From an uncultured Gammaproteobacteria bacterium (lineage in GTDB: Bacteria; Patescibacteriota; Microgenomatia; UBA8517; JACQJR01): a stretch of 33,177 nt of DNA. Positions 1 through 30,089 of this stretch are shown one piece after another. Location of the stretch: assembly GCA_964363945.1 (NCBI GenBank), contig CAYIKF010000003.1, positions 5,693 through 38,869 of the forward strand. Reading direction: 5' to 3'. Positions within the stretch are counted from its first letter, which is position 1, and each line of letters starts with the position of its first letter. Under the pieces are notes generated by a model. That model ran no database searches. It saw only the letters and a list, made by a program, of their open reading frames with translations, and was not told the origin of the DNA. The translations under genes and the position numbers were made by a program.

Positions 1-65
1 ACGAAACAACAAGGAGTCCCCCAACCAATAAAAAAATGGGCAGATATGACTTCATAAAAAAATGA

Positions 66-121
66 CCAAATTCCAAATCTCAAATCCCAGACAAATTCAA
101 AATTATAAATTCCAAATTCAA
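66..121. repeat. degenerate tandem heptamer array (CCAAATT/CCAAATC/TCAAATC ... AATTCAA/AATTATA/AATTCCA/AATTCAA), intergenic
   Basis: Read directly. Seven of the eight consecutive 7-nt windows, in one phase, are variants of the same unit. The array lies downstream of the glyQS stop. Confidence 0.6.
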
Positions 122-168
122 AAGTTTTGAGAATTCGAATTTAGAACATTTGATTAGGTTAATTCTCA

Positions 169-6081: not shown

Positions 6082-6083
6082 AT

Positions 6084-6111
6084 ACGATTTATGATTTACG
6101 ATTTAAGATTT
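6084..6111. repeat. tandem heptamer array A[C/T/A]GATTT x4 spanning a stop codon and an intercistronic junction
   Basis: ACGATTT ATGATTT ACGATTT AAGATTT. It encodes the last 7 codons (KILNRKS) plus the stop of the GT4 gene and runs into the 7-nt spacer before the manC start. Confidence 0.8.
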
Positions 6112-8365: not shown

Positions 8366-8379
8366 AATATCGCCTGTGT

Positions 8380-11953: not shown

Positions 11954-13295
11954 GGCTTTCCCTCTTCATACGTGTATTAATAATTCCTACAGATATTCCC
12001 AGAAGTGTCCAAAATATAAGTGCCACCTTTGAGGCCTCAAATACATCAATAAATGCTGCATTCGCAAGCAATCCCACTGCTGCCCCTACTGTTCCCACAA
12101 CCAACACATCAGAGGAGGCAAGAGTGCCCCCGTTTGGCCGAAACTCCTGTAGGAATCCCCACATTTTCTGTCCAATCCTCATCAATACAAGAAAAAACGC
12201 CAGTGTACCCACCACTCCCACTTCCCCTAACATGCGAAGGTAATCATTATCTGTTGCAAGGGTGATAGAGGAAAATCCGGTCCCCAGCAGAGGATTCTTA
12301 GAGAACGCGCGCAGCGCCCTCGGCCATTCAACATTCAGACGAATTGCAGTTGAGCGGTCTTCGAAAGCTGGTGGTCGAGGAGCGGGAGGAGGAGACAAAC
12401 CTTCTTCTTGTGCCCAAGCAATTTTTGTTACCTCAACTCTCCCAAATAGCTGCTGTAGGGTAAATTTATACTTACCAGCCAAATCCGAACTAATTACAAA
12501 CGCGATACTTATTGCCATCATAAACACCAAAAAGGCTCGTTTCTTAAGGAACCAAAGCGTTACCACGAGTCCTACAAAGTACGCTGCGACGGAAATCCGA
12601 GAGGCAGCAGTCACGAGCAGCCACAAAAGACAGAGAGTAACGCCAAAGATAAGCGCTCTCCCTACAATATTCCTCAACGCAAAAAGATAGGCTATCCCTA
12701 TCGGAAGGGCAAGCACCAAAAATGCTGCCAAATCATAGTGACCCCCGAACGTCGAATGAAGCCGCGCTCCCGGCAACCATCGCAGTGCCAATCCTTTCGA
12801 AAATTCCGCATTTTGGGTTGAAATTACCGGAAAGCCAAAATGGATTTGTCCCAAGCCATACAAAAACACAAGAAACGCGGCGACCAGAAGCACCTCAATA
12901 AAGAAATATGCATGCTTTTCACTTCGCGCGAAGCTGTATGCAAGAAAGAAAGGAACAACGTATTCAATCCTTCTTACCCAATGAAGTAATCCTATATGCG
13001 GTACAACAGTGTGGGTTAAAAGGATACCGGAGGCAATTGACACCAACCCTGCTGCAAGGAACAGTAAGAATGCGCGGGTAATGCTGCTTTGAAAAAAAGG
13101 GCGATGATTTTGTACTAATTTTAACAAAAGAAATATCCCCAGAGCCGCGAGTAGAATATCTTCCATTCTCACTGCAACATACGTTCCCGGTATATTAAAA
13201 AGAGGAAACTTAGGATATAAAGGTATAGCAAGTAAAATTACCGCCAGACCCCATTTAAAAATAAAATTCTCAAATTCTACCAAGCGCGTGAACAT
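11937..13295 (-). CDS. O-antigen ligase / Wzy-type polymerase family membrane protein
   Basis: Polytopic ORF with a large Pro-rich extracytoplasmic loop (EEGLSPPPAPRPPAFEDRS) and a Wzy_C-like core (HSTFGGHYDLAAFLVLALP ... TAASRISVAAYFVG). The track ORF extends to 13346. Met18 (13295) is preferred because it shortens the overlap with the upstream gene. The exact start is uncertain. Confidence 0.68.
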   Translation of the reverse strand: MFTRLVEFENFIFKWGLAVILLAIPLYPKFPLFNIPGTYVAVRMEDILLAALGIFLLLKLVQNHRPFFQSSITRAFLLFLAAGLVSIASGILLTHTVVPHIGLLHWVRRIEYVVPFFLAYSFARSEKHAYFFIEVLLVAAFLVFLYGLGQIHFGFPVISTQNAEFSKGLALRWLPGARLHSTFGGHYDLAAFLVLALPIGIAYLFALRNIVGRALIFGVTLCLLWLLVTAASRISVAAYFVGLVVTLWFLKKRAFLVFMMAISIAFVISSDLAGKYKFTLQQLFGRVEVTKIAWAQEEGLSPPPAPRPPAFEDRSTAIRLNVEWPRALRAFSKNPLLGTGFSSITLATDNDYLRMLGEVGVVGTLAFFLVLMRIGQKMWGFLQEFRPNGGTLASSDVLVVGTVGAAVGLLANAAFIDVFEASKVALIFWTLLGISVGIINTRMKRESREENY

Positions 13296-14187
13296 AAATC
13301 CTACTCCTTGGTGTAATGATACCAAAAATAAACATGCGAAGGACACTTCCTATAAAAAGTAAAAGGCGCAAAAACGCAAAGGCCATTTTTGAATAATGTT
13401 TTTTGTAAAGAAGTTTGAGGCCCTCGAATTCACGAAGAACCGTTCCCTCTCTTGTTCCACTTGCTCCCCCGAAGTGGATTATTTTCGTTTTTGGAACATA
13501 CCACACCTCCCACCCCTTGGCTTTAGTCCGCATACAATATTCAACCTCCTCTACATAGAGAAAGAAGCTCTCATCAAACAAACCAATCTCGCGAACTACC
13601 TCTCGCCGAATTAAAAAAAATGCTCCTGTTACCCAATCAAGCGGCCGTTCTTTTGAATAAGCAGAGCTTGACTTCGTATAAAAAGACCTATGGGGATGGT
13701 ACGAGCCAAAAAAATCGCCTACAAATGGTACGTCATCAATGAGTGTTGCCCACAAGAACACTCGCGGTAAGGTCGGGGAAAATCCGCCTGTTGGTTGGAG
13801 CGTGCCATCGGCATTTACTAATTTACAACTGGCAATGCCAACCTTTGGATGCTCATCCATCCACATCACCATACTAAGTAAAGAATTCTCAATTAATTTT
13901 GTATCCGAATTAAGAAGTAGAATATAACGTCCCTTTGCCTTCTTCATCCCCTGATTATTCGCCGCCCCAAATCCCTTGTTATCTTTATTTGTTATAACCT
14001 GTAACCTGTAACCTGTAACTTTCAATTTGCGTAATGCTTCAACTGTTCCATCTGTTGAATTATTATCAATCACAATAATTTCATAGGTTATGTCCTTCGT
14101 ATACTTCTTCACTGACTCTATACACTTCAAAAGAAGTTCTTTTGTGTTATACGACACTATAATTATCGAAAGATCAACTATTTCCAT
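13270..14187 (-). CDS. GT2-family glycosyltransferase (paralog of 8380..9291)
   Basis: LSIIIVSYNTKELL ... VIDNNSTDGTVEAL ... NKGFGAANN ... LLLNSDT ... GAFFLIRREV ... FLYVEEVEYCMRTKAKGWEV. It is collinear with 8380..9291. The track start 14217 is possible, and Met11 (14187) gives a smaller overlap. Confidence 0.85.
   Translation of the reverse strand: MEIVDLSIIIVSYNTKELLLKCIESVKKYTKDITYEIIVIDNNSTDGTVEALRKLKVTGYRLQVITNKDNKGFGAANNQGMKKAKGRYILLLNSDTKLIENSLLSMVMWMDEHPKVGIASCKLVNADGTLQPTGGFSPTLPRVFLWATLIDDVPFVGDFFGSYHPHRSFYTKSSSAYSKERPLDWVTGAFFLIRREVVREIGLFDESFFLYVEEVEYCMRTKAKGWEVWYVPKTKIIHFGGASGTREGTVLREFEGLKLLYKKHYSKMAFAFLRLLLFIGSVLRMFIFGIITPRSRIYVHALGRI
13995..14019. repeat. perfect tandem heptamer array AACCTGT x3.6 inside the paralogous GT2 ORF
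   Basis: Read directly. It encodes KVTGYRLQV at codons collinear with the array at 9095..9129. Confidence 0.92.
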
Positions 14188-14746
14188 TTGTTCTAAAAAT
14201 AGTTTTGTACCATTCACGTATCACGAGAAGTAACAAACCAAGGGACAAAATTGCAAGTGAAACCCTTACATACGAATTGCTTCTGTAATACCGAACGGTA
14301 ATCTTTTGTTGAAATTCTCGCCCTTCGATTATGATTTCATCTTTTGGCTCTTTCGCAACAAAACCGTTGACAAAAAACGACTCCCTAAAGGGGTGAACGA
14401 TTTCCTCCAGAAAAACACTTCGGGTCAATTCTTTAATAAATATGGCTGCATCTTCTGGGGGATAATTAAGCCTGTAAGTTGGGATAGTAATGTTAAAACC
14501 TCTCCAACTTATAGTGCTCAACTCCTCCTCATGATATGCAAGAACTTCCTCACGCGATAAATCAGTAAAATAAGCTCGTCGGTTTTTATAATCCTCGGTA
14601 TCTCCCCGCTCGGTAGACTCCAAAGAGTCGGGCGGATTGCTCGGGAAAGGAGGCGTAGGAAGTATAAGATAAAAAAGAAAAATTCCTGAAAAAAAAGTAT
14701 AAGCGATAACAAATAAGGTCAAAAGTAAAAATTTGATAACTTTCAT
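14174..14746 (-). CDS. hypothetical bitopic membrane protein (N- and C-terminal TM segments, extracytoplasmic middle)
   Basis: The ORF was trimmed to Met38 (MKVIKFLLLTLFVIAYTFF) because the upstream acetyltransferase gene ends at 14751. I recognise no family. Confidence 0.5.
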   Translation of the reverse strand: MKVIKFLLLTLFVIAYTFFSGIFLFYLILPTPPFPSNPPDSLESTERGDTEDYKNRRAYFTDLSREEVLAYHEEELSTISWRGFNITIPTYRLNYPPEDAAIFIKELTRSVFLEEIVHPFRESFFVNGFVAKEPKDEIIIEGREFQQKITVRYYRSNSYVRVSLAILSLGLLLLVIREWYKTIFRTNGNS

Positions 14747-17243: not shown

Positions 17244-18410
17244 TTATTTTAAAATCCTTTCTAACACCTCTAATGTTTGTTGGGCTGCTTTTTGCCAGTC
17301 GAAGAGTTTGGTGCGCTCTAAGCCTTTTTTGGATAATGCGTCATAATTTTTAAGAGCCTCTTTTATCCCACGAGCAATATCTCCTGGATCGTCGGGATTC
17401 ACTAAAATTCCTGCATCTCCCACAACTTCAGGCAAACTTCCGACAGTTGAGACGACAACCGGTGTTCCTACTGCCATTGCCTCAACTACTGGAATTCCAA
17501 ATCCTTCCCAAAAACTAGGCAAGACAAAAACTAGAGCTCCTGCCATGAGAAGCGGCACATCATCATCTGGTATAAAGTCAGTAAAAACCACTTTATCCCG
17601 AAGGGGCAAGCTCCGCTTATCTTCTAAATCTAATTCTTTTACTTTTTTGAAAATTGATTCATATAACCAACCCTTTTTACCGGCAATAACAAGAGTGATT
17701 AGTGATTGCCGCCCATGGCGAGCCTCGCCTTCGGCGGGGTGATTAGTGATTAGTGAGAAAGCAGTCAGCAAACCTTCAATGTTCTTACTTGGTTTTAGCG
17801 TACTCAGAAAAAGAATATAATCATCTTTAATGTTGTATTTTTTCTTTACTTCTCTAATTTTAATTTTTGATATTTGATTTTTAAATTTATTTTTATCGTA
17901 TCCCGGATACGTAACCGTTATTTTTGAACGTGGAATTTTGTAATACCTGATAATGTCTCTTTTTGTGCTTTCTGAAATAGCAATGACGTGGTCTGACTTT
18001 TTAATAGAGTGGGCTGTCCAAGAAGTTAATTGGTAAAGATCGCGGCGTGTAAATTGATCGGGGTATCGCAAATACCCAAGGTCCATTATTGAAACAACTG
18101 TCGGAATAGGTGACCAACGAGGACGATAATGCCCTGGGGTAAAAAATACTTCGGGTCTTGGCTCGGCAAAAAAAAGAGAAAGAGGAAGCGCAAATTGAGT
18201 CCATAAACGCTTAGGGCCGAAGACTTTATATTTCCACCATGAAATTTCTTTGGGCATGTCAGGAAGGGGAGTATCACGTAAATAAATCATCCACTCATGT
18301 TTTTTTGCCTCTGGCAAGTTATACAAAGCATGGAGAAGTTCAAACGCATATTGGTTTGATCCAACACGCCGTTCTACATTTGCTTCATTGCCATCAACGC
18401 CGATTATCAT
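17244..18410 (-). CDS. GT4-family glycosyltransferase
   Basis: 388-aa ORF. MIIGVDGNEANVERRVGSNQY N-terminus, C-terminal block LPSFWEGFGIPVVEAMAVGTPVVVSTVGSLPEV, and tail FDWQKAAQQTLEVLERILK. Confidence 0.85.
   Translation of the reverse strand: MIIGVDGNEANVERRVGSNQYAFELLHALYNLPEAKKHEWMIYLRDTPLPDMPKEISWWKYKVFGPKRLWTQFALPLSLFFAEPRPEVFFTPGHYRPRWSPIPTVVSIMDLGYLRYPDQFTRRDLYQLTSWTAHSIKKSDHVIAISESTKRDIIRYYKIPRSKITVTYPGYDKNKFKNQISKIKIREVKKKYNIKDDYILFLSTLKPSKNIEGLLTAFSLITNHPAEGEARHGRQSLITLVIAGKKGWLYESIFKKVKELDLEDKRSLPLRDKVVFTDFIPDDDVPLLMAGALVFVLPSFWEGFGIPVVEAMAVGTPVVVSTVGSLPEVVGDAGILVNPDDPGDIARGIKEALKNYDALSKKGLERTKLFDWQKAAQQTLEVLERILK
17695..17759. repeat. copy 2 of the dispersed GC-rich hairpin element nested between GTGATTA/GTGATTG heptamers, inside another GT4 ORF
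   Basis: GTGATTA GTGATTG + CCGCCCATGGCGAGCCTCGCCTTCGGCGG + G + GTGATTA GTGATTA GTGAGAA. It is on the same strand as copy 1 but is read in a different codon phase. Confidence 0.9.
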
Positions 18411-18427
18411 ATATTAATGCATGATAA

Positions 18428-19519
18428 TTACACTACACTCCGATATACTTCTAATGTTTCCCTTGCTGCTTTCTCCCATGAGAACTGTTTTACTCGAGCC
18501 AATCCTTTCTTAATGAATTCTCCCCTTTTGGAAAGCACGCGTTCAATCCCTCTTCTTATATCATCAACATCCTCCGGGTTTACCAAAACTGCCGCGTCCC
18601 CTGCTACCTCGGGCATACTTGAGATGTTAGACGTTACTACCGGACATCCGCACGCCATTGCTTCTAAAATTGGCAAACCAAACCCTTCGTATAGGGAAGC
18701 GTAAATAAGCGCTTGTGCACCACTATAAAGTGCGGAGAGTTCGCTTCTTGAAACATGACCAATCCACAAAATATTGTCCCGCGGAGCGGGATCCTGCTTC
18801 GCGGGATGCGACCACCTTTTTCCCACAACAACCAATGGCGGTGCATCGGGAATGAGTGTAAGTGCTTGAGCTACATTTAATAGATTTTTTCGCGGATCTG
18901 CTCCTACTGCAAGCAGGAAATGCCGTGGAAGACCAAATTTCTTTTTTACCTCCCCTACCCTCTTATCCCCTACTTTTCTATAAATTGCATCCGGCGCCTC
19001 ATACACTACTGAAATTTTTTCCGCCGGAATTCCCAAATAAGTTATGATGTCATTTTTGGTAGCTTCCGATACTGCTATCACCCGTTCACATTCTCTCTTT
19101 ACCCACTTAAGCTGTCTTTTGTGTACTGCAATAATCTTAGGATGTGAACTCTCTGGGTATAAAAGCGGCACTAAATCATGCACTGTAGTAACCAGTTTTG
19201 CTTTTCTTGATGGTGGTTGTGTCCAATTAGAAGAATGGAACACATCAACCGAACCCACAAAATTTTCAATTGGAAAGATGTGAAGCCGATTCCATAAAAG
19301 GTCAAGCATCATTGGAGATAAAGGATAAAACTTTTTTGTGAAATTACCTGAAAGGTCCTTGCTAAAATGATTTAAATCAGGCAAACGGCGCATGGCACCA
19401 CCGAAGAGGAAATACTCATCTTTTTTATCAAACGAGAGGAGTGCGTGTACCAAATTCCTTGTATACCACGAAACGCCAGTCTCATAAACTATTTGCGAAA
19501 TATCTATTCCAATCTTCAT
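18428..19519 (-). CDS. GT4-family glycosyltransferase
   Basis: 363-aa ORF. MKIGIDISQIVYETGVSWYTRNL N-terminus, block ASLYEGFGLPILEAMACGCPVVTSNISSMPEV, and tail FSWEKAARETLEVY. Confidence 0.85.
   Translation of the reverse strand: MKIGIDISQIVYETGVSWYTRNLVHALLSFDKKDEYFLFGGAMRRLPDLNHFSKDLSGNFTKKFYPLSPMMLDLLWNRLHIFPIENFVGSVDVFHSSNWTQPPSRKAKLVTTVHDLVPLLYPESSHPKIIAVHKRQLKWVKRECERVIAVSEATKNDIITYLGIPAEKISVVYEAPDAIYRKVGDKRVGEVKKKFGLPRHFLLAVGADPRKNLLNVAQALTLIPDAPPLVVVGKRWSHPAKQDPAPRDNILWIGHVSRSELSALYSGAQALIYASLYEGFGLPILEAMACGCPVVTSNISSMPEVAGDAAVLVNPEDVDDIRRGIERVLSKRGEFIKKGLARVKQFSWEKAARETLEVYRSVV
18777..18806. repeat. 30-nt GC-rich near-perfect palindrome embedded in-frame in a GT4 ORF
   Basis: TCCCGCGGAGCGGGATCCTGCTTCGCGGGA. 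The outer 7-bp stem is TCCCGCG/CGCGGGA. The inner arms pair with two G-U positions around a GATC loop. It encodes PAKQDPAPRD. Confidence 0.85.
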
Positions 19520-20972
19520 CTTGAGTTAATTGTACGCCTCGCTCGTATTCGAACACAAACCCCACTCCTCGGAAGTTATATGTTGCTACCTTAACAAAAC
19601 CCTTCTCGTCTAATGTCTTTTCAACTACCCCCTCAGGATCATTTATCTCGACCAAATATTGAAAAACAAAAATTTGCTCTCTCTCTTTTATAATTTGGTC
19701 AAGTCCAGGATTCAAACCCCCTACACCATCAACAATCCCTTTTGAATACCAAGAAAAACCAGGCATCACACTTTTGCTCTCAAAAAGAACAAGAACGCCA
19801 GGAGTTGCTTTTTGTTCAATAAAGGATACTGCCCCTCTCCAATCTTCTCTCTGAAAGCGTGAATTGAAAAGATAGATACCACTTGAAACTATATTAACCA
19901 AAAGTAACCCAACCACCATTATCAACCTCACTTTACTGTTTTTAAATGAAAGCGCGCCAAATGCCGCGAGTAAATAAAATGGGGGTAATAAGAAAATGAG
20001 CCGAAAATAGGAAAATACTGAAACTTTGAGTCCCACCAGAGCCACTGCGAGAATAGGTAATGTAAACCATACCCATAAAAAACTAGTCCGCTGCCACAGA
20101 GTAACACTTTTGAGGAAAACGCTCGCAAAAAGCACAGTTGGAATAACAAGCAACGCGGCATAAAGCACACTATTTTCTGCCGATATTCTCCCAATCATAA
20201 ATTTAATAGGTACTAAAGCAAGCTCTTTTACGTTCGTTCCGCCCAGCACATTCCACCATTGGGGGTTAGTCATTTGTACACCCAAGCCTGCCGCAAGTTG
20301 CCCAAATAATATCGGAACCCAAGGTAAAAAAAGGAAAAGAATGGCTATGGTAGCTAACAACCAGTTGGTAACACTCTTTTTAAGATGTTTTCTTTCGAAC
20401 ACGAGTAAATACAAAGCGAAAAATAGAAAAAGAAAAACGGGGAGATAATCGGTATAGAGAAGAAGTGTACTTACAATTACTAATCCCACCCAATCCGACG
20501 CTTGCTGTTTTTTCGCTTTGATAATTTTCAAGAAAAACAAAACTGAAAGGGTTGTAAAAAACACTGCCGGAACATACATTCGTGCTTCTTGAGAATAGTA
20601 AATGTGTAAACCTGAAGTTGCCAAAAAAAGAGCTGCAACTTCAGGAAATTTCCAATTTCCAATTTCCAATTTCCAATTAATTTGTTCAATTAAAATTTTC
20701 CCAATTAAGAAAACTACCCAAATTGTAGCAACACCAAACAAAACTGAAAGCATACGTATAGCGACCTCCGATGTACCAAAAACTTGTATAAAGAAGTGGA
20801 GTATCAAGTAGTAAAGTGGTGGGTGAAAGTCACCAGGAGAGAATTGTGCTAAAATTTCGGCAACAGAAAAGTCGCGTGCCACTAACGCGCTTGTCGCCTC
20901 ATCATGCCAAAAAGATTGGTTAAGGGAAATCAGTCTAAGTAAAAACCCAAGTATAAGAATTACGAAAATCAC
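19482..20972 (-). CDS. polytopic GT-C membrane glycosyltransferase (PMT_2 / ArnT-like)
   Basis: 496-aa multi-TM ORF. The N-terminus LLRLISLNQSFWHDEATSALVARDF ... FHPPLYYLILHFF is typical of the PMT_2/ArnT family. The GTG start forms a GTGA overlap with the upstream GT2 gene (20969-20972). Confidence 0.78.
   Translation of the reverse strand: MIFVILILGFLLRLISLNQSFWHDEATSALVARDFSVAEILAQFSPGDFHPPLYYLILHFFIQVFGTSEVAIRMLSVLFGVATIWVVFLIGKILIEQINWKLEIGNWKFPEVAALFLATSGLHIYYSQEARMYVPAVFFTTLSVLFFLKIIKAKKQQASDWVGLVIVSTLLLYTDYLPVFLFLFFALYLLVFERKHLKKSVTNWLLATIAILFLFLPWVPILFGQLAAGLGVQMTNPQWWNVLGGTNVKELALVPIKFMIGRISAENSVLYAALLVIPTVLFASVFLKSVTLWQRTSFLWVWFTLPILAVALVGLKVSVFSYFRLIFLLPPFYLLAAFGALSFKNSKVRLIMVVGLLLVNIVSSGIYLFNSRFQREDWRGAVSFIEQKATPGVLVLFESKSVMPGFSWYSKGIVDGVGGLNPGLDQIIKEREQIFVFQYLVEINDPEGVVEKTLDEKGFVKVATYNFRGVGFVFEYERGVQLTQDEDWNRYFANSL
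20647..20678. repeat. perfect tandem heptamer array AATTTCC x4.5 inside a GT-C ORF
   Basis: Read directly. CC recurs at 20652, 20659, 20666 and 20673. It encodes NWKLEIGNWKF in a loop between TM segments. Confidence 0.92.
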
Positions 20973-21811
20973 TTTGCTCCTCTACCTGTCATCCGATATT
21001 CTAAAATTCCTATAAAAATTCCAAAATCATAAACAATCTTAAAGATGAGAAAATGCGGCGTTTTATTAAGGATAGATTTTACCAGTCCTACTACTAGTGA
21101 TACCGGTAAAGACGCGCGAAATAGTGCAAAAGTTGCTCCGAGGATTCCCAATTTATACTCTCTTTTAGCAACCCAATGCGCGTGGTTAAAAACTTCAGAA
21201 AGATTACTGGGATTTGCATGATAAAACTTAGCATCAGGGGCAGCTACTGCTTCATATCCAAGTTTCTGACTTAAACTCCAATCATCCGTATAATACCCAC
21301 CAAGTTCAAATCCTCCTACCTTATCAAACTCACTTTTTAAAAGTGCTCTGAAAACCTTCTGTGTGGGTGGGTAGTTTTTAGGATGGCGCTTTCTCTCCTC
21401 CCAACCCTCATTTATATTCCAACACAGCGCCCACACATTTTCCCAGTTTGAGACATATTCCTCACGACTCCACGTGCCGCTTGCGTTCCCTCTTATTATT
21501 GGTGCAACCAACTTCTCTATAAAGTCCCTCTCAAACGTCATATCCGCATCAACAAAAACGAGTATTTCTCCTTTTGCATGGGTTGCTCCCAAATTCCTCG
21601 CCTCACCTGGTCCCTTATGTTTCTGTTCAAAAATTCTTAAATCGTACTTCTTAAATCTTAAATCTCCGACAATACTAAGGGTATTGTCGATCGAGCCATC
21701 ATCTACAACAATTACCTCTATTTTTTTGTAAGTTTGTTCGCACAAAGATTCCAAACACTTGTTAATTGTTTCCTCTTCGTTATAAGTAGGAATAATAACT
21801 GTGACTTTCAT
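20969..21811 (-). CDS. GT2-family glycosyltransferase with hydrophobic C-terminal segments (possible polyprenyl-phosphate sugar synthase, GtrB/CsbB/Ppm-like)
   Basis: 280-aa ORF. VTVIIPTYNEEETI ... VVDDGSIDNT ... VFVDADMTF, followed by C-terminal hydrophobic stretches (LGILGATFALFRASLPVSLVVGLV, FLIFKIVYDFGIFIGIL). It is translationally coupled to the downstream GT-C gene. The lipid-carrier role is inference. Confidence 0.8.
   Translation of the reverse strand: MKVTVIIPTYNEEETINKCLESLCEQTYKKIEVIVVDDGSIDNTLSIVGDLRFKKYDLRIFEQKHKGPGEARNLGATHAKGEILVFVDADMTFERDFIEKLVAPIIRGNASGTWSREEYVSNWENVWALCWNINEGWEERKRHPKNYPPTQKVFRALLKSEFDKVGGFELGGYYTDDWSLSQKLGYEAVAAPDAKFYHANPSNLSEVFNHAHWVAKREYKLGILGATFALFRASLPVSLVVGLVKSILNKTPHFLIFKIVYDFGIFIGILEYRMTGRGAK
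21636..21665. repeat. tandem heptamer array CTTAAAT CGTACTT CTTAAAT CTTAAAT inside a GT2 ORF
   Basis: Read directly. It encodes DLRFKKYDLRI, again in the loop following the DDGS.DNT motif. Confidence 0.8.
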
Positions 21812-21877
21812 TTTGAGCCTAAGTGAGAAACAAGCTCTGCTTATTTTGAACGTCAGTGAGAAACAAGCTCTGCTTAT
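21811..21877. repeat. 33-nt tandem duplication (30/33 identical, with a perfect 23-mer AGTGAGAAACAAGCTCTGCTTAT x2) filling the intercistronic spacer
   Basis: Units are 21811-21843 and 21844-21876. On the coding strand each unit starts with TAAGCAGAGCTTGTTTCTCACT. The first TAA (21876-21874) is the stop of the GT4 gene, and the array ends at the ATG of the GT2 gene (21811). Confidence 0.9.
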
Positions 21878-22884
21878 AATTTTTTAAATAATTCTTCATA
21901 CTGCTTTGCAATTTTGTCCCAAGAGAATTTTTCTGCTTGACGACGAGGTTTGTCTCCCTGTTTGGCATTCAGTGCCTTTTTCAGAGCGGCAGCATAAGCA
22001 TTTGTATCTGTTGGATTAACTAAAATCCCCGCATCACCTACTATTTCTTCCCTTATCAAGTCATTATTTGCAACCACGGGTAGGTTTGTCGCCATTGCCT
22101 CAACAAGAACAATTTCAAAAGAATGGTAGGATTCTGAAGGAATAGTAAATACATCCGCTACCCTATACGCAGTAGGCAACTCTTCATATGACATTTTAAT
22201 TAATTGAAACTGCTCGCCAAGAAGCTTCATCCCTAACTTGTGTATTTTTTCTCTTAGTGGACCATCCCCTACCACCAAAATACTCGCGTTCCCAAACGCA
22301 GCTGTCGCTTTAATTGCCAAGTCAACTCTTTTACCCACAGTTAATGCTGCAACGCAAAGCACAATTGGATGCTTTAATTGAGTAGAAAATTTTCGACCGC
22401 TGGGTGAGAACTTTTGTAAATCCACACCATTAGGGATATATTGAACTCTCACCAGCGGATTCGCTTTTTTAGCCCAATCTCCTGCAAAACTTGAAATAGC
22501 CACAAAAACATTTGGAAAACTCCATAAATTATGTCTGTCATCCCATCCCATCCCCGACTGTCCACTGATTATCACTTTCCCACCATATAACCATGTAACA
22601 ATACGAACAAACGTTGACTGCCATCCACCATTCAATGGAATAACAATATCAAATTTCTCCTTCCAAAGGAGAGGAAGGGTTTTGAGTGTAAACCACAATA
22701 TGTAGAGACCGTTAGGATCGACAAAAAAGTGCCAGACAAAAGGCCATCTCTTTGGTGGAATTTTATTTCCACTCATTACCACAATCTCATGGTTTCTTTT
22801 TAATCTTTCCGAGAGCTCCCGCACGAATGTCTCTGCACCCCTTTGCACCTGGCCTTGATAAATATTTAAAAATACCACTCTCAT
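21874..22884 (-). CDS. GT4-family glycosyltransferase (start at Met8 of the track ORF)
   Basis: MRVVFLNIYQGQVQRGAETFVREL N-terminus. The ATG at 22884 forms an ATGA overlap with the upstream stop. C-terminal block IPSESYHSFEIVLVEAMATNLPVVANN ... FSWDKIAKQY. Confidence 0.85.
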   Translation of the reverse strand: MRVVFLNIYQGQVQRGAETFVRELSERLKRNHEIVVMSGNKIPPKRWPFVWHFFVDPNGLYILWFTLKTLPLLWKEKFDIVIPLNGGWQSTFVRIVTWLYGGKVIISGQSGMGWDDRHNLWSFPNVFVAISSFAGDWAKKANPLVRVQYIPNGVDLQKFSPSGRKFSTQLKHPIVLCVAALTVGKRVDLAIKATAAFGNASILVVGDGPLREKIHKLGMKLLGEQFQLIKMSYEELPTAYRVADVFTIPSESYHSFEIVLVEAMATNLPVVANNDLIREEIVGDAGILVNPTDTNAYAAALKKALNAKQGDKPRRQAEKFSWDKIAKQYEELFKKL

Positions 22885-24272
22885 TTTGCGCGCTCCCATA
22901 GCCAAACTCCCGGCTTTACTTCTTCCTCTTTAGTATAGTGCTCCTCTATCCAGCGAACAATTTTTTGTGGTTGATAAGTCCCTAAGTCAAACCAGTTTCC
23001 CGGGGAAGGTGTACGCCAGAAAATAAAGTGTGGTGGCCCACCAGCTGACGAATTTTCCCAGCGGGCGATAATTTCCTCCTGAACGCCAGGAATTTCAAGA
23101 TACCATCCGAAATTGTCAGTCCAACGTTTTGGGGGAACTCTCCCTGCCATTACATAAAGTCCTGAGTGGAGACCCAATAGAAAAACTTTTTCGCTCTGCG
23201 GAACTTTACTTTGAATCGTTTGTGCTAATTCCAAATCCTCTTTTGCGTAAAACCGTGTTTCTCTTCCCCACTCGCTAGAAAGGAGCGGACGATGGATAGC
23301 AAAGAAGATAAGTAATAAGTAAGAAGTAATAAGTAATAACTTAAATCTTTTTATTTTCATTTGATTAAAAAGCAAACCATAAAGAATAACCAGAAAAACG
23401 AGAGCTGTTTGAAAGTGAAAAAAAGAAAAACGAGGATAGATTATGATAAGCGCAATTACTAGAAAGGGGAATAAAACTTGAAATACTGAATCTTTAAGAA
23501 TTTCCTTATTCTTAATGATGATAATTAAAAGTGGCACAAGTAAAAAAATACTTATAAATGCTTGCCCAGGAGATACCTCCATATGCACATATCCCGGAAA
23601 TTTACCAAACTGCGTAAGAGGATAAATAATTGTCCAGTTTAAAAAATCAACGAGCGCTCCCTCTTGTAAAAGCCTAATCAAAAGTGGAATCCCTAAAATC
23701 AAAGGACCATAAAATAAGTATTTCAATTGATTAAAACTTGTTTTCTTAATAAGAAGTAAATATAAAATAGTAAATAACAAATATAATCCTGCTGTTTGTT
23801 TGGTAAGAGCAGCCGCTGCAAAAAATAATCCTGCCAAGAATAAATTATGTCTTAACAAAAATAGTGTTCCCAAAAGGATTGGGAGAACAATTGCAATATC
23901 AAACCATAGCATGTTTCCTTCGAGAAAGGGCTGCAAAAAGATATACGCCGCAACGGCAAAAAACGCCGGTGCATCGCGGCGGGTTGTGGAGCGAGTAATA
24001 ATAAACACAAGAATATCACTTACAAGAATTACCGCCCATGCTACACTTTTGAGTACCCAAAGATGATAGCCAAAAAGCGTGTACGCCCACGAAAGTGCCA
24101 TGGTAAGAAGCGGAGGATACGGATGAATCATATCTTTATAGATGAGAAATCCGTGATTACGAAGATAAGAATACGAAAGCATCTCAGGCCAGGCAGTAAA
24201 TTGAAGATTGGCTAGGAAAAAAAAGTGAAGCCCCAGTAGTAAAACAATCAGAATGTATGTCCCATATCTCAT
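22881..24272 (-). CDS. polytopic membrane protein, putative GT-C-type glycosyltransferase
   Basis: The ORF was trimmed to Met51 (MRYGTYILIVLLLGLHFFF) because that ATG forms an ATGA overlap with the methyltransferase stop (24269-24272). It has about 12 hydrophobic segments followed by a soluble C-terminal domain. The architecture is ArnT/PMT-like. The family call is tentative. Confidence 0.55.
   Translation of the reverse strand: MRYGTYILIVLLLGLHFFFLANLQFTAWPEMLSYSYLRNHGFLIYKDMIHPYPPLLTMALSWAYTLFGYHLWVLKSVAWAVILVSDILVFIITRSTTRRDAPAFFAVAAYIFLQPFLEGNMLWFDIAIVLPILLGTLFLLRHNLFLAGLFFAAAALTKQTAGLYLLFTILYLLLIKKTSFNQLKYLFYGPLILGIPLLIRLLQEGALVDFLNWTIIYPLTQFGKFPGYVHMEVSPGQAFISIFLLVPLLIIIIKNKEILKDSVFQVLFPFLVIALIIIYPRFSFFHFQTALVFLVILYGLLFNQMKIKRFKLLLITSYLLLIFFAIHRPLLSSEWGRETRFYAKEDLELAQTIQSKVPQSEKVFLLGLHSGLYVMAGRVPPKRWTDNFGWYLEIPGVQEEIIARWENSSAGGPPHFIFWRTPSPGNWFDLGTYQPQKIVRWIEEHYTKEEEVKPGVWLWERAK
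23310..23339. repeat. tandem heptamer array AAGTAAT AAGTAAG AAGTAAT AAGTAAT inside a membrane-protein ORF
   Basis: Read directly. It encodes LLITSYLLLI, part of a TM segment. Confidence 0.85.
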
Positions 24273-25090
24273 ACTTTTTGTGCAATAACTGTTACTCCAC
24301 TCCCCATTCCCATCTTTATTAAAATAAAAGAAGGAAGGAAAGTTATAATATTCGTAAAAAATCGTTTTCTTAGTTTTACCAAACTCTGCCAGATTTCTTT
24401 CGCGGGATTTCCATAGTTCCATACTCCTGAATGTGTTTCACAATAAAGCATTTTAAATCCTACTTTTTCCAAAAGAAGTGAGAGCGCTTGAGGAGTAAAG
24501 TGCCAGCGATGCTCTTTTGGTAAAATATAAGCCCAATGAGCACCCCATATCCGTGCAGTTAGACTTGCAAAATTTGGAGCATCAATAAAAATAAGCCCGT
24601 CTTTTTTCAAAACAGCATTTGCCTTCTGTAAGACCTCTAGTGGATTTTCCATATGCTCAAGAACATGGTTAAAAATAATAAGATCAAAACTGTTGTGAGA
24701 GATGTCAGCATTTTCAAAGGTCGCAACTATTGTTGGAATTTTTCTCTTTTGTGCGGCAGAAGCGGCTGGTTTTGATGGTTCAATTCCTTGGACTTCCCAG
24801 TCTTGCTGCTTTAATAGGGATAAAAAAATTCCAGTGGATGAACCAATCTCAAGAACTTTGCCCTTCTTTTTGAACTTAGAAATTATCTTCACCCTTTTTT
24901 CAAAAATATTCCTAAACTGTTCTTTTTCTTTGATGTAAACCTGATCTCTGTGGTAAGCAGCATATTGTCGTTGCTTACCTCTTTGCTCTGTAGCGCCTAA
25001 GCCACAAGCTTTGCACTGCAAAATTTTAATTCCTTCATTTTCACCTAAAAGCTTAAATCTTTTCCCACAACTGATACACTTTCTATTCAT
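24269..25090 (-). CDS. class I SAM-dependent methyltransferase with N-terminal Cys4 zinc-ribbon
   Basis: 273-aa ORF. CISCGKRF...CKACG ribbon, motif I VLEIGSSTGIFLSLL, and FDLIIFNHVLEHMENP. Confidence 0.85.
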   Translation of the reverse strand: MNRKCISCGKRFKLLGENEGIKILQCKACGLGATEQRGKQRQYAAYHRDQVYIKEKEQFRNIFEKRVKIISKFKKKGKVLEIGSSTGIFLSLLKQQDWEVQGIEPSKPAASAAQKRKIPTIVATFENADISHNSFDLIIFNHVLEHMENPLEVLQKANAVLKKDGLIFIDAPNFASLTARIWGAHWAYILPKEHRWHFTPQALSLLLEKVGFKMLYCETHSGVWNYGNPAKEIWQSLVKLRKRFFTNIITFLPSFILIKMGMGSGVTVIAQKV

Positions 25091-25972: not shown

Positions 25973-27243
25973 TTTTGTGCGCGCAGTGCGTGCCATGCGG
26001 CTGTGAAACTCACTATCATTGTCAAAAGATTAACCATCCCTAATGCGAACACCGGCGCGAAAACACCAATTTTGGGAATGAGGTAAAAGTTGACAAGAAG
26101 CACAAGAGGAAGGGTAACAAGCGATGTTGCGGCAATAATATATGGTTTTTGGAACGCATAAATTAAAAGATTGACCGCGGGAGTAGCAAGGGCGAACGGA
26201 ATGTACACCGCAAGCAACGCTTGTAGTACCACACCTGAACTTGCGTATTGCGGCCCGAAAAGTGTAATGATAAAGGGAGCAATAAGGATACCAAGTATTA
26301 AACCTATGGAAATAATAACAGAAATTCCCATTGCCCGCTTAAAATAAGAGACGAGGGCTTTCTCTCCTAGAGACGCGTAACTTGGAGCCAAAACTGTTGC
26401 AAAGCTACCTATAATAAGTGGAACGCCCAAGGCAACACTGCTCGCGGCTGAGTAAATGCCAGCTTGATACGTACCCGCAAGCTGGAGAAGCAACAATACA
26501 TCCACCCTTGAATTAACTGAAGAAACAACCCTATTTACACTCATCCAAGAGGAGAACGCCGCAATCTCGCGTATCATCTTCTTCCACCCTGGAACAAAAC
26601 CAATTGATACCCGCTGCCAAAAGAGTGAAATAAACCACGAAAAGATTGGGGCTGCGGCGAACACAAAAAGCACGCTCATAATGTTTATAATTCCTGCCAA
26701 GAAAACCACCGCAAGAAACACCATACGTAGAATATTAGTAAGAGTTATAAAAAGAGCAGCTTGCCTCCAATTTTGTTTTACCTCGCTTGTTACCACTTGA
26801 AAATCCATAAGTAAAAACCCAAATAGGGAAAGGGCGGCAAAAATAATAAGAAACATCTCTTCTTGCTTAAAAATTAAAAGCGAGAGTGGGCGGGCAAAGA
26901 GCAAAAGCGCTAAAACTAAAAAGATGCCAATTACAACTCTTACAGTAAATAGTGCAGACAGAACTGTTCGAGCCTCTCCCAATTTCCCAGAACTCCACTT
27001 TGCGGAAACAAACCGAAAAAGTGCAGCCCCCAGTCCCAGCTCCCCTACAGCAAAAATAATGGTGGTAAAGCTGGCAACAGCTGCAACTATTCCCCAATTC
27101 TCTGGTCCAAGAAACCGTGCAGCCACAATTGTAAATACGATTGCCAAAGCAGAAGAAACAGCATTACCCACAAATACTATCGAGGCATCCTTTGTCACCC
27201 TTGAGAAAACAAGCTCTCGGACTTGTGTCAATAGTTCAAACAT
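25969..27243 (-). CDS. MOP-superfamily oligosaccharide flippase (Wzx-like)
   Basis: About 424-aa polytopic ORF from Met16 (MFELLTQVRELVFSRVTKDASIVFVGNAVSSALAIVFTIVAARFLGPENWG), a typical Wzx/polysaccharide-biosynthesis-protein N-terminus with about 12 TM segments. Confidence 0.78.
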   Translation of the reverse strand: MFELLTQVRELVFSRVTKDASIVFVGNAVSSALAIVFTIVAARFLGPENWGIVAAVASFTTIIFAVGELGLGAALFRFVSAKWSSGKLGEARTVLSALFTVRVVIGIFLVLALLLFARPLSLLIFKQEEMFLIIFAALSLFGFLLMDFQVVTSEVKQNWRQAALFITLTNILRMVFLAVVFLAGIINIMSVLFVFAAAPIFSWFISLFWQRVSIGFVPGWKKMIREIAAFSSWMSVNRVVSSVNSRVDVLLLLQLAGTYQAGIYSAASSVALGVPLIIGSFATVLAPSYASLGEKALVSYFKRAMGISVIISIGLILGILIAPFIITLFGPQYASSGVVLQALLAVYIPFALATPAVNLLIYAFQKPYIIAATSLVTLPLVLLVNFYLIPKIGVFAPVFALGMVNLLTMIVSFTAAWHALRAQK

Positions 27244-29941
27244 CTTTACCTCTATCTTTAGAGTAAAACCAAAGAAAAATAACTGCAAGCGAAAATATAG
27301 CAGCTAAACTTATATATCCTCCCCAAAGTACATGTTCCTGTCCCACAAAAGTAATCTCTATATCTTGCCAATTAGGCAAAACATAGAATCCATTTATCAT
27401 AGAGTAAAGTGGGTAAGAAGGCAGAAATTCCCTCCCCTTTTTCAACTTCCATTGTGAATGATAACTATCTGTAAAAATAATCCAATTATTCTGGGGCGGA
27501 TTAACTTTATATCGAACCGGGTTTATCATCTCGTAATCCACCTGTCTCCATTGACTAATGTTGGCTAATTGCTGCAATTCTTGCTCATCACCCTTCCCGT
27601 CAATCCTTACCACTGGAAAATCTCTCAGAAAATTTTGTGTTAATTTCTGCGCTTCCTCCCAATCCTTCTTTGGAACAAAAGCTACTGTATTAAGAGCATG
27701 AAATCCATTAATATTCTTAAACGCTACTCTTTTCTGACCCTTTTTTAGAGAAAATCCTTCTCTTATATACCATTCAAAATGGTATTTCGTATTGTAAGTA
27801 ATTGGGGACCCGTAAAATAAATCTACTCCCAACTGCTCATCCTTGTCCCTAGTTAACGTTCTTGCGGCAAAAACATATTCACCGTCAGATAAAACATCAA
27901 TATCGAAGTAAATCCACTCATCGGCAACAGAAGAAAATGCAATACCTTTACCATAATCAAATTCTTTTGTATCCACACCATTAATCAAAAACTCATATTT
28001 CCATTTCAAATAATCGTCAGCAGAACGCAGCGCCCATTGCGAAGGTCCTTTTACTCCCTTAGTTGCCTCTCTTGGAGAAACAAAATGCTTCTGTAAAAAA
28101 CTCATGGTTAAATCAATCTCGTCTTTTTCAGTGAAAACTAAAATCGCAGACTGCGAGGCAATCCTCTGCAAATTCCTTGGATCAAATTTTCCATCCTCAA
28201 GAAACACGAAAGCCTGGTTGCCTACGGAAAAATTTTTATCTTTTTCTTTGAGTTTTTGATAAATATCCTCACTTCCTATAACAGCAATTAATTTATCAAC
28301 CGAAAATATATGAGGCTTTGTATCAACAAGACTATAAACAGGGAAACTCACTCCCCAGTCTTCTTTTAACAAACCAGATGTAGAAGCTGTTAAAGTTAAA
28401 AGATTATTCCAGTCTTGTTGTTGCGTTTCATTTAGTTGAAATGTTCGTGGGTCTCCCGAAAAAACAAGATACTTAATTCCCAAAAGGTCAAACCATTCCA
28501 AAAAAGAAGAATCGTGCACAAAATTGAATGCGTCATACGTTCCCACATTGAGCGAGGCAAAAGGGCGCTCTTCCAATAATCTTTTCGCATCAAGTGCTTG
28601 TTTCCCCTCTGTATGAAACCCAAATGGATGGCGTTCTGGAAACCATGCTGTTCTAAAAAAACTTGAGTCCCCTCTTAACTTCTCGTATACAATCTCTAAG
28701 TCGTGAGGAAATTCCCTACCAGACAACACCCCGTGCAAACCGCCTAGGAGCGCAGGGTGTATTAGGAAAAGCAAATATGCATATACCGCGAAGGACGCCA
28801 GGAAATTTACACCCGCACTAAAGGGTGTAAAGAAACCTTTCAAAAGACCGCCAATACGCTCAACAGTTATACCAATTAACATTCCTCCAAAAAGAAGAAG
28901 TGGTGCAAAAAATTTAGTGGAGTCACGAAAAGCGACAGCAAAAGGGACATTTCTCACCACCCACTCGTACCATTCACCAAATGGTGCCGTCTCTCCCTTG
29001 ACTAAGAAAGTAAAAAGTAAAAAGTAAAAAGTAAAAAGTAAAATCTTTTTATTTGGCCTAAGAAGCAAATTAGCAAATATTAAAAGTGGAATACCTACAA
29101 AATAAAACGGGGGCGGAAAAACTCTTCCAAACTCATTCCCTGGCCAATGTGGCTGAAAGAGAAGAAGAGGATTGAGTAATGAAATAAGCTGAAGGCTTGA
29201 AACAGAGACGCTTAAATTCCCACCTATTAAACTTGGAATAATCCAATAAGAATTTGCGGCAATTGTTAAAAAAATAAGTGGAATTAGAAATTTAAGATTT
29301 TTAACAGTGTTTCCTTGGCGGCTCTCTATCCAGTCAATAAAAACCCAAACAACCAGAGCAAGAATACCAATAGCAGCAATGCGAGGATCAATAACTGATA
29401 GAACAATTAAGAAAAATAAAGAACAAAGAAAATTTTTAAAACGAGGGATATCAATTAACTTCCTAAGAAAGAGAAGAGTTAATGGGAAAAATCCATAAGC
29501 AAGTGCCACGCCGACTTGCCCACCATCAACAAGAAGCAAAAAATACGTATTAAGTGTATAAACAAGCGAGGCAAAAAATTGAACAACCCTTGAATACCCT
29601 AGGTATCGCGCAAAAAAGATAGGGGTACTCAGTGAAAGAAGAGTTGCCGGGAAATAGAAAAGTATCCTAATTATTAAATCGTTATCAAGACCGAAAAGCT
29701 TGTGCAGTATCCCGTATACAAACATTAAAGGAGAGAGCCAAAGAAGAGAATTTATCCCGCCAAAGTTATTTCCATTATCAGTCCAAAGATAGGGTTTTGC
29801 GACCAATTCTTTTAAACCTTCGGGGTAAAAATAAGGGGCATCTCCCCAGACGAGTGGTGATGGTGTAAAAAATGCCCTAAACGCTAAAAGAGTGGGAACG
29901 GCAAGTCCGAGAAAAACCAAAATGTTATACTTTTGTATCAT
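27236..29941 (-). CDS. large polytopic membrane protein, GT-C-like N-terminal half plus extracytoplasmic C-terminal half ending in a YfhO-like module and TM anchor
   Basis: About 900 aa from the ATG at 29941. The track start at 29962 is a GTG. It has many TM segments in the first ~420 aa. The C-terminal tail FTDSYHSQWKLKKG...EITFVGQEHVLWGGYISLAAIFSLAVIF parallels the tails of 30145..32124 and 32402..33177. Confidence 0.6.
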   Translation of the reverse strand: MIQKYNILVFLGLAVPTLLAFRAFFTPSPLVWGDAPYFYPEGLKELVAKPYLWTDNGNNFGGINSLLWLSPLMFVYGILHKLFGLDNDLIIRILFYFPATLLSLSTPIFFARYLGYSRVVQFFASLVYTLNTYFLLLVDGGQVGVALAYGFFPLTLLFLRKLIDIPRFKNFLCSLFFLIVLSVIDPRIAAIGILALVVWVFIDWIESRQGNTVKNLKFLIPLIFLTIAANSYWIIPSLIGGNLSVSVSSLQLISLLNPLLLFQPHWPGNEFGRVFPPPFYFVGIPLLIFANLLLRPNKKILLFTFYFLLFTFLVKGETAPFGEWYEWVVRNVPFAVAFRDSTKFFAPLLLFGGMLIGITVERIGGLLKGFFTPFSAGVNFLASFAVYAYLLFLIHPALLGGLHGVLSGREFPHDLEIVYEKLRGDSSFFRTAWFPERHPFGFHTEGKQALDAKRLLEERPFASLNVGTYDAFNFVHDSSFLEWFDLLGIKYLVFSGDPRTFQLNETQQQDWNNLLTLTASTSGLLKEDWGVSFPVYSLVDTKPHIFSVDKLIAVIGSEDIYQKLKEKDKNFSVGNQAFVFLEDGKFDPRNLQRIASQSAILVFTEKDEIDLTMSFLQKHFVSPREATKGVKGPSQWALRSADDYLKWKYEFLINGVDTKEFDYGKGIAFSSVADEWIYFDIDVLSDGEYVFAARTLTRDKDEQLGVDLFYGSPITYNTKYHFEWYIREGFSLKKGQKRVAFKNINGFHALNTVAFVPKKDWEEAQKLTQNFLRDFPVVRIDGKGDEQELQQLANISQWRQVDYEMINPVRYKVNPPQNNWIIFTDSYHSQWKLKKGREFLPSYPLYSMINGFYVLPNWQDIEITFVGQEHVLWGGYISLAAIFSLAVIFLWFYSKDRGKDV
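29007..29043. repeat. tandem heptamer array GTAAAAA x5.3 inside the large membrane-protein ORF
   Basis: Read directly. G recurs at 29010, 29017, 29024, 29031 and 29038. It encodes ILLFTFYFLLFTFL, a TM-like segment. Confidence 0.92.
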
Positions 29942-30089
29942 ACAAAACCTGCCATAAGACACTCACAAGAAGCAAAACATAAAGATAGTTTGTTATTTTG
30001 ATGGCGAATCCTGGATGATTGGTTGCTAAAAGAAAACCAACAACTAAAAATCCAGCTAGAGAGAAAAGAAGTAGCAAATTTCTTAGCAT
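29925..30089 (-). CDS. candidate 54-aa two-TM small membrane protein (below the ORF-track cutoff)
   Basis: Hand translation of the minus strand from the ATG at 30089 gives MLRNLLLLFSLAGFLVVGFLLATNHPGFAIKITNYLYVLLLVSVLWQVLYDTKV, with TAA at 29927-29925. It overlaps the ATG of the large membrane protein gene by 17 nt. There is no homology evidence. Confidence 0.3.
   Translation of the reverse strand: MLRNLLLLFSLAGFLVVGFLLATNHPGFAIKITNYLYVLLLVSVLWQVLYDTKV

Follow-up and report, generated by a model that had tools for sequence, protein, structure and literature searches.

What produces a perfect run of 7-nucleotide (nt) repeats inside a protein-coding gene, and is it the DNA or the encoded peptide that matters? 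The question is raised by a 33,177-nt stretch of DNA from an uncultured bacterium (GenBank assembly GCA_964363945.1, contig CAYIKF010000003.1, positions 5,693 to 38,869), here referred to as the window, which carries a perfect (AATTTCC)x4.57 array at positions 20647..20678. On the plus strand, the array consists of four AATTTCC units followed by AATT. Tandem Repeats Finder (TRF) described it as a repeat of period 7 with 4.6 copies, 100% matches and a score of 64, and a separate scan of our own agreed; both bear out the initial annotation, which had reported a perfect heptamer array of about 4.5 units at this site. The array lies in frame within the open reading frame (ORF) 19482..20972 on the minus strand, where it encodes the peptide N99-WKLEIGNWK-F109. 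Our analysis suggests that it is probably a heptanucleotide microsatellite, amplified by slippage from resident sequence and filtered by the reading frame and by the tolerance of the protein and of the loop in which it lies.

The product of the host gene matched the Pfam family PMT_2 (PF13231) at 3e-11 and 44.1 bits, the curated cut-off being 26.1. An AlphaFold model built from an alignment of 73 homologs (predicted local distance difference test score, 90.2; predicted template modeling score, 0.91) yielded as its top matches in the PDB the ArnT structures 5EZM/5F15 (template modeling score, 0.59), followed by ALG12, STT3/PglB and PMT. The family match, the ArnT-like predicted fold, a C-terminal alpha/beta domain in the model and a D-E pair in the first outer loop (D24-E25, invariant across the 73 sequences) are shared with ArnT/PMT_2 (GT39/GT83-like) enzymes, from which the protein differs in having just 13-15% sequence identity to the solved structures. 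Collectively, the PMT_2 match and the GT-C structures retrieved with the model confirm the earlier label of a GT-C membrane glycosyltransferase (GT). In the model, the array peptide forms a short non-helical stretch of lower local confidence between helices 69-98 and 109-118; judging from GT-C topology, this loop between transmembrane (TM) segments 3 and 4 would lie on the same extracytoplasmic side as the D24-E25 loop. The sequence AATTTTCCCAATT, which had been taken for a recurrence of the unit downstream of the array, is present at 20694..20706, but, read on the coding strand, it specifies L-I-G-K, a conserved motif with which TM3 ends, and is therefore no part of the array. Two other candidate functions of the heptamers were rejected: GGAAATT does not match the X XXY YYZ pattern of a programmed −1 frameshift site, and a period of 7 is not the helical phase that phasing of DNA curvature would involve. 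A target of a diversity-generating retroelement was considered as well and was set aside on general grounds, since such elements pair a template repeat with a variable region; no search of the window was aimed at it.

Comparison of this slot with its relatives pointed to an origin at the DNA level. The closest relative, the Logan contig L001, shares about 92% nt identity with the window over the aligned stretches and encodes a protein (P0001) of 489 amino acids (aa) that is 97% identical to the host protein and lacks exactly WKLEIGN. At the slot, L001 reads ...CAAATT AATTGGAAATT TCCTGAAG..., and the window reads the same, with identical flanks, plus GGAAATTGGAAATTGGAAATT. Between near-identical flanks, the window therefore exceeds L001 by exactly three units, (GGAAATT)x3, amounting to 21 nt or 7 aa, whereas L001 holds only AATTGGAAATT at the array site, that is, a single resident copy of the unit. 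Nothing but the three tandem units makes up the extra DNA, which lacks terminal repeats and a target duplication, and such a whole-unit length difference between relatives with conserved flanks is what is expected of a microsatellite. The next relative, L002 (84% aa identity, on the same contig as L007), has no repeat at the slot and a short loop, so that parsimony favours expansion in the lineage of the window; a three-unit contraction in L001 would be the alternative.

The wider set of orthologs agreed with this picture. The segment T83..A118 measures 26 aa in 55 of 82 orthologs, 29 aa in L001 and 36 aa in the window, so that the TM3-TM4 loop of the window is 10 aa longer than in most orthologs, owing to the array. 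The initial annotation had proposed to examine whether this loop normally lacks the residues in question, and it does, so that the condition named there as refuting the claim, orthologs with this peptide encoded by non-repetitive DNA, did not overturn it. The 97%-identical ortholog without exactly three units and the 55 shorter loops support the view that the array is a product of processes acting on the DNA and not a conserved peptide. Further alleles are few: the cluster of the closest homolog has three members (496 aa, 489 aa and a contig-truncated protein of 467 aa with the same array), and a scan of JGI metagenome contigs for both flanks separated by N{10,40} gave three matches, all of them unrelated chance matches, and no further alleles. 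An all-versus-all comparison of 82 loci for close pairs returned only six pairs above 80% identity, from which a filter for periodic context gave nothing usable.

Heptamer periodicity is not confined to this array. We counted perfect runs with at least 11 self-matching positions, treating all periods alike and taking the expectation from dinucleotide shuffles. The window contained six runs of period 7 (0.02 expected) and otherwise one run each of periods 5 and 14. In 81 related Microgenomates loci (1.47 Mb) centred on orthologs of the host gene, there were 61 runs of period 7 (1.8 expected) and 20 of period 14 (1.2 expected), any other period reaching six at most. With mismatches allowed, TRF reported 86 arrays of period 7, 45 of period 14 and nine of period 8. 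As a control, the 50-kb O-antigen/colanic-acid (rfb/wca) region of Escherichia coli contained no period-7 run. The period-7 enrichment that the initial annotation had proposed to look for is thus massive and specific, and head-to-tail copies of a short unit occur well above chance, as in a microsatellite. The highest array density of the set was found in L071, a Chisholmbacteria metagenome-assembled genome (MAG), despite its higher GC content (0.48): its 19.7-kb locus holds five perfect arrays of 4.3-5.0 copies in four genes between 5270 and 17502, two of them in one GT-C gene. As to the identity of the genomes, the host protein and its contigs derive from Hainich groundwater metagenomes (Hain_H43, Hain_H51), and its homologs are annotated as Microgenomates, Woesebacteria or Patescibacteria. 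Many MAG records with clear Microgenomates-type orthologs (L007, L008, L010, L013 and others) are titled "uncultured Gammaproteobacteria bacterium" or "Pseudomonadales", and one "Clostridia"; these records are binchicken and SRP co-assemblies, and their titles look like placeholder or erroneous taxonomy.

The arrays are distributed very unevenly among gene classes, which we assigned on rough gene calls by jackhmmer searches seeded with the proteins of the window. The GT2, GT4 and GT-C classes held 60 of the 61 perfect in-gene arrays (919 genes, 1.06 Mb), the remaining one being in Wzy (69 genes, 97 kb); none was found in Wzx (57 genes, 70 kb) or in the 362 other genes (268 kb), and six perfect arrays lay outside called genes. 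All 77 in-gene period-7 arrays reported by TRF fell into the same three GT classes, whereas other periods were spread across all classes. A Pfam search with 59 array-bearing proteins identified 19 GT4, 18 GT2 and 11 PMT_2 proteins (48 of 59 being GTs) and one Wzy; the remainder were mostly large membrane proteins without a family match, one of them with a weak match to PTPS_related. Moreover, the arrays recur at particular structural slots: at about aa 51-74 of GT2 proteins, after the DxGSxDxT motif; at about aa 175-240 of GT4 proteins, between the two Rossmann domains and at 45-60% of the gene; and at about aa 101-107 of the GT-C protein, in the window, in L044 (AAATTGG x3) and in L071 (ATTTGGC x4.6).

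At several of these slots, the repeat had changed and the length had not. In the slot of about 30 nt in the GT2 gene 20969..21811, the window has ATTTAAG-type units, L007 a perfect (CTGTTCA)x4.4 array and L001 (A/T)TTTCCA units; window and L007 are of equal length here and share 9 of 30 positions, as opposed to about 85% in the flanks. Among 56 orthologs of this gene, the interval DDGS..ARN is most often 37 aa long, and its 7-nt periodicity ranges from none to perfect. Likewise, L007 carries a non-repetitive segment of the same length as the window array at the 13995 slot and a degenerate segment of the same length at the 29007 slot, and a second GT2 slot (9095) holds ATCAAGT units in the window and at least four AATTTCC units in L001. 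Different perfect units at slots of unchanged length indicate that the arrays are homogenised faster than their flanks diverge, mostly without net change in length. This may proceed by compensating loss and gain of units or by transient misalignment that copies a neighbouring unit.

The reading frame was preserved in all in-gene arrays. Sixty-two of the 67 perfect arrays were in the phase that gives the longest, intact ORF, and gain or loss of one unit never convincingly lengthened an ORF; the five flagged arrays lie at a contig end, at intergenic sites, at a gene start and, as a stop-containing unit, at a gene end, and none of them splits a gene. In the consensus assemblies, none of the 61 in-gene arrays was convincingly in an OFF phase. 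When unit changes were simulated in the 20647 array, losses of two and one and gains of one and two units gave products of 105, 145, 112 and 152 aa, respectively, in contrast to 489 and 503 aa for the loss and gain of three units. In-gene copy numbers range from 3.1 to 5.6 with three exceptions and cluster at 4-5, which corresponds to one resident unit and three more; copy numbers of 3.4-8.9 were found for the nine arrays that lie outside called genes. The consensus sequences of four Hainich assemblies from one population showed no length heterogeneity of the kind expected of a microsatellite: every array was identical, and the sole indel was one unit of an unrelated 33-nt repeat.

In the reading that we favour, a 7-nt unit resident in the codons of the TM3-TM4 loop (AATT-GGAAATT) would have been multiplied when the strands misaligned out of register, in steps of 7 nt, with slippage as the likely physical mechanism. 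That the surviving allele has exactly three additional units would follow from the frame, which is kept only when the net change is three units (21 nt, +7 aa). The same process would act across the lineage, creating heptamer arrays and repeatedly re-homogenising them by gain and loss of units, possibly with templated correction between neighbouring units as a further step. Selection would then retain arrays only where the frame is intact and the protein tolerates a 7-aa period, that is, in surface loops, in an inter-domain linker and in TM segments of individually dispensable GTs. Since gain or loss of one or two units cuts the enzyme short at 105-152 aa, each array would constitute a de facto mutational on/off hot spot, selected or not. 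The initial annotation had invoked a common generating process "rather than selection on the peptide". The array is indeed no conserved peptide; selection does, however, clearly filter the outcome, as indicated by the preserved frame, the restriction to GT-type genes, the overlap with the xNFxF motif of GT2 proteins and the different units in TM segments and loops.

Several observations weigh against this reading. No whole-unit variation was seen within the population, so that activity is deduced from differences between lineages. If the array grew from 1.6 to 4.6 copies through simple slippage, intermediates that are out of frame would be expected on the way, but none was seen. The excess of one unit class, described below, is not accounted for by slippage alone. 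Finally, the absence of arrays from 362 non-GT genes and their near absence from Wzx and Wzy are stricter than a tolerance filter obviously predicts and could reflect positive selection for mutability instead, the gene classes being approximate and the GT-C class possibly including other membrane proteins.

The strongest alternative, which we regard as possible though clearly less probable, is that the arrays are selected contingency loci: second-order selection would keep them as reversible frameshift switches, and their combined on/off states would generate variants of surface-glycan GTs by phase variation in bacteria of an episymbiotic type. The confinement to GT-type genes of glycan clusters fits this well, as does the near absence from Wzx and Wzy, the loss of which is usually harmful. 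So do the early truncation of the enzyme by any change of one or two units and the number of arrays in the window cluster (six perfect and about six imperfect ones in 28 kb). Perfect arrays also occupy the same structural slots in orthologs of 35-45% aa identity, which implies turnover and not decay. There is, moreover, a precedent in the heptanucleotide repeat of pglE in Neisseria meningitidis (PMC7157529). Yet chance alone would place two thirds of in-gene arrays in an OFF phase, and none of the 61 was OFF. Real contingency loci commonly show OFF alleles among strains; here, array lengths did not differ among four assemblies of one population, and the sole polymorphism seen was an in-frame step of three units. 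A search for OFF products with the N-terminal 108 aa of the host protein returned no truncated near-identical protein, the best match being 66% identical, although this is a weak negative, as known full-length proteins were also not returned. Nor are the arrays biased toward the 5′ end, those of GT4 genes lying around the middle of the gene, and at 4-5 units they are short compared with the 13-38 units of the heptanucleotide tracts at the Haemophilus influenzae hmw loci (PMC2651432). In its boldest form, this alternative would mean that Microgenomates keep lineage-wide heptanucleotide tracts at fixed GT2, GT4 and GT-C slots as a combinatorial frameshift switchboard for surface-glycan variation. 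We hold this idea only tentatively. If true, Patescibacteria would gain their first described contingency-locus system, and one maintained long enough for perfect tracts to persist in the same loop of orthologs that are 35-45% identical.

The units themselves are more alike than expected. As a null, we drew 300 sets of random stop-free coding-strand heptamers from the same genes, after duplicates of the same unit, family and position had been removed. There were 17 identical pairs of units (3.0 ± 1.9 in the null) and 131 pairs within one mismatch (44 ± 11), and none of the 300 sets reached either count. The unit families are thus distinguishable from random AT-rich heptamers, and the common process suggested in the initial annotation, seeding plus slippage, fits this result. 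The commonest class, AAATTGG (read as GGAAATT or AATTTCC), accounts for 8 of 67 arrays, although 0.5% would be its expected share; these arrays come from eight genomes and three gene families and run in both orientations. Beyond it, diversity is high, with 12 classes recurring and about 30 units occurring once. Part of the similarity stems from the stop-free requirement, which favours an A-run, a T-run and a G/C spacer. Shared seeds contribute as well. The GT2 arrays overlie the conserved motif I-S-N-F-Q-F (xNFxF), whose AT-rich codons ATTTCCAATTTCCAATTT (ATT TCC AAT TTC CAA TTT) amount to 2.6 heptamers by themselves, and KFK-type peptides recur in the GT4 arrays. Context plays a further part, since arrays in TM segments have T-rich hydrophobic units and loop arrays AAATTxx-type units. 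Shared descent of arrays at one slot may also contribute.

The possibility that the peptide itself was selected is very unlikely. On this account, the 7-residue repeat (NWKLEIG NWKF) would have been favoured, for example as an outer-loop beta-hairpin, and the period in the DNA would be a by-product of a recent 21-nt duplication. The peptide does lie in a short hairpin-like loop of the model, the distant orthologs L071, L082 and L084 also have a loop longer by 10 aa with a similar xxxGxWxxxF pattern, and the 37-aa segment of the GT2 family keeps its length with or without periodic DNA. A 21-nt duplication, however, yields a period of 21 and not a perfect period of 7 over 32 nt. With a period of 7 nt, the unit is read in each of the three frames, something that selection at the peptide level would not bring about, and this perfect register largely refutes the account. 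Furthermore, the AATTTCC/GGAAATT unit occurs in both orientations and encodes the unrelated peptides NWKLEIG and NFQFPIS, and the extra residues are missing from 55 of 82 orthologs.

We find it just as improbable that a tiny mobile or enzyme-installed unit is at work, in which AATTTCC-type heptamers or 21-nt blocks would be copied between loci as a transposase footprint, by a retroelement or by gene conversion between arrays. The overrepresentation of the AAATTGG class across genomes, families and orientations is what such copying would give, and units do recur within a genome, at both ends of L001 and, in the case of GATTTAA, at 6086 and 21635 of the window. Unrelated units occupying the same slot in close genomes and copy numbers quantised at about one plus three units are likewise compatible with it. 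Still, the similarity of units can also follow from the AT-rich, stop-free constraint and the conserved seed motifs (xNFxF in GT2, KFK-type in GT4), and the many different units speak against such copying. The site that would have to be empty before the arrival of an element similar to an insertion sequence or a miniature inverted-repeat transposable element already contains the unit in L001, and the insertion bears no hallmark of transposition at its ends. The arrays are limited to orthologous slots instead of being dispersed, and no candidate enzyme was identified in the window; the mobile unit that the initial annotation had offered as its second option is thus not supported. Finally, an assembly or sequencing artefact can practically be dismissed, for although L001 breaks inside AATTTCC-type arrays at both ends and such arrays disturb assemblers, a single read exceeds the 32-nt array in length, four further Hainich groundwater assemblies, made independently from different wells and replicates, show it unchanged, and the 496-aa ORF around it is intact.

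Heptanucleotide repeats have been noted in other bacteria. According to PMC4692102, heptameric simple sequence repeats (SSRs) are over-represented in many bacteria (Mrazek, Guo & Shah 2007), possibly reflecting the length of DNA in the polymerase active site, and known examples include the cyanobacterial short tandemly repeated repetitive (STRR) sequences, GGGAATC in Xanthomonas and GGGGA(T/C)T in Nostoc. In the repeats covered there, as in ours, period 7 is singled out, length and sequence at one locus vary among close relatives, and polymerase slippage has been proposed as the cause. Those repeats are mainly intergenic, G-rich and often long, whereas the present arrays are AT-rich, 90% intragenic, always in frame, of about 4-5 copies and confined to GT-type genes of a lineage of the candidate phyla radiation (CPR). 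The second known parallel is formed by SSR contingency loci, such as the heptanucleotide repeat that controls phase variation of the glycosyltransferase PglE and the hmw tracts. Here too, a 7-nt unit lies in or beside a gene for a surface structure, a change of one unit truncates the product, and many GTs of a cluster carry a tract. The present arrays differ in that neither an OFF allele nor a single-unit polymorphism was seen, in that the tracts are much shorter, in that the only polymorphism is an in-frame step of three units altering the length of a loop, and in that the host is an uncultured groundwater Microgenomates bacterium and not a host-adapted pathogen.

The 20647 array taken alone is an ordinary in-frame microsatellite expansion that adds seven residues to one loop. 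The clade-wide pattern, in contrast, appears to be undescribed: AT-rich arrays in a CPR lineage, in GT-type genes only, quantised by the frame at about one plus three units and evolving in concert at constant length, a combination that sets them apart both from contingency loci of the classical kind and from the G-rich, intergenic heptamers known in cyanobacteria and Xanthomonas. Our literature search found no report linking heptanucleotide or tandem repeats with CPR, Patescibacteria or Microgenomates. Most Patescibacteria are uncultured, and many grow attached to the cells of a host. Surface glycans probably play a central part in this attachment and in escape from phages, and we know of no account of how Patescibacteria vary them. 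GT-specific heptamer microsatellites throughout a clade provide a concrete hypothesis of local hypermutation or phase variation that is testable with existing metagenomic reads. For the study of SSRs, they are a clean natural case of a preference for 7-nt units that has long been noted in bacterial slippage, and both the reading-frame filter (net steps of three units) and concerted evolution without change in length can be seen in them directly.

The array is one of several in a glycan-synthesis cluster of about 28 kb, located between a gene for a class-II aminoacyl-tRNA synthetase and recO. The cluster encodes a Bac_transf initiating sugar transferase, a nucleotidyl transferase, six GT4 and four GT2 enzymes, two PMT_2 GT-C proteins, two large membrane proteins, Wzy, Wzx, a methyltransferase and an acyltransferase. 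The heptamer arrays of the window are listed in Table 1.

Table 1. Heptamer arrays of the window and the gene that hosts the array in question
Feature	Position	Strand	Remarks
Array in question, (GGAAATT)x4.57 on the coding strand	20647..20678	minus	NWKLEIGNWKF, aa 99-109; 3 units (21 nt) absent from closest relative
Host gene, GT-C glycosyltransferase, 496 aa	19482..20972	minus	Pfam PMT_2, ArnT-like predicted fold; array in TM3-TM4 loop
Sister array (GGAAAAT)x4.1	8176..8204	minus	GT4 gene 7199..8437, at aa 78
ATCAAGT, 2.9 perfect / 4.6 imperfect copies	9095..9126	minus	GT2 gene 8380..9291, loop after DxSxDGS
(CAGGTTA)x3.6	13995..14019	minus	GT2 gene 13270..14217
Short array (TAATCAC)x2.6	17739..17756	minus	GT4 gene 17244..18410
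Imperfect ATTTAAG, ~4.4 copies	21635..21665	minus	GT2 gene 20969..21811
TACTTAT, 4.6 copies, 92%	23308..23339	minus	TM segment, 513-aa membrane protein gene 22881..24422
Second array of the 513-aa membrane protein gene	23755..23776	minus (gene)	
Perfect (TTACTTT)x5.3	29007..29043	minus	TM segment (LLFTFYFLLFTF) of 908-aa membrane protein gene 27236..29962
Degenerate non-coding CCAAATT/CAAATTC, ~8.7 copies, 68%	66..123		downstream of class-II aminoacyl-tRNA synthetase gene
14-nt (double-heptamer) repeat TACGATTTAAGATT x2.1	6083..6111		at stop codon of GT4 gene 6089..7198

The unit of the 20647 array had been described as closely related to that of the sister array (GGAAAAT) and to those of the intergenic array at 66..121; this relation is correct, and the non-coding array extends to position 123. 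The sister array is embedded in a degenerate heptamer stretch of about 50 nt (8174..8224) that includes AGAAATTGGAAAAT and GAAATTG-type units, and the GATTTAA unit of the 14-nt repeat recurs at 21635..21665 in opposite orientation. The three arrays at 23308, 23755 and 29007 lie in predicted TM segments; the large membrane proteins concerned belong to no Pfam family or have only a weak match to PTPS_related. The T-rich units of these arrays encode peptides rich in L, F, T and Y, and the corresponding segments of L007 match them in length but are degenerate. The unit GTGATTA of the short array at 17739..17756 encodes S-L-I-T-N-H. This "array" may be a conserved motif with built-in periodicity, because L014 shares both the unit and the peptide at this position of the GT4 protein. 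The same GTGATTA is listed as a heptanucleotide of Helicobacter pylori by van Belkum et al., as quoted in PMC4692102.

Contig L001 ends at both ends (1..33 and 11328..11355) inside AATTTCC/ATTTTCC arrays. These fall in two GT2 loops, both of which carry arrays in the window as well, but of other units. Genomes rich in heptamers may be systematically fragmented at glycosyltransferase genes, because 31-mers shared between arrays of the same unit would break assembly at k=31.

A further dispersed element of about 33 nt was observed in the window. It forms 2.1 tandem copies of ATTTTGAACCTAAGTGAGAAACAAGCTCTGCTT at 21810..21877, directly upstream of the ATG of the GT2 gene 20969..21811, and one of the Hainich assemblies (L004) has one 33-nt unit fewer at this site. 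Its core, CAAGCTCTGCTTAT, occurs four times in the window (0.25 expected), and two of these copies lie exactly at 21-nt and 23-nt insertions of the window relative to L001/L007, in a GT2 and a GT4 gene. Copies of the element were located at 13657..13677 and 17607..17636 of the window, at 3525..3595 of L007 and at 10811..10845 of L008, and it may represent a miniature dispersed repeat or a regulatory motif.

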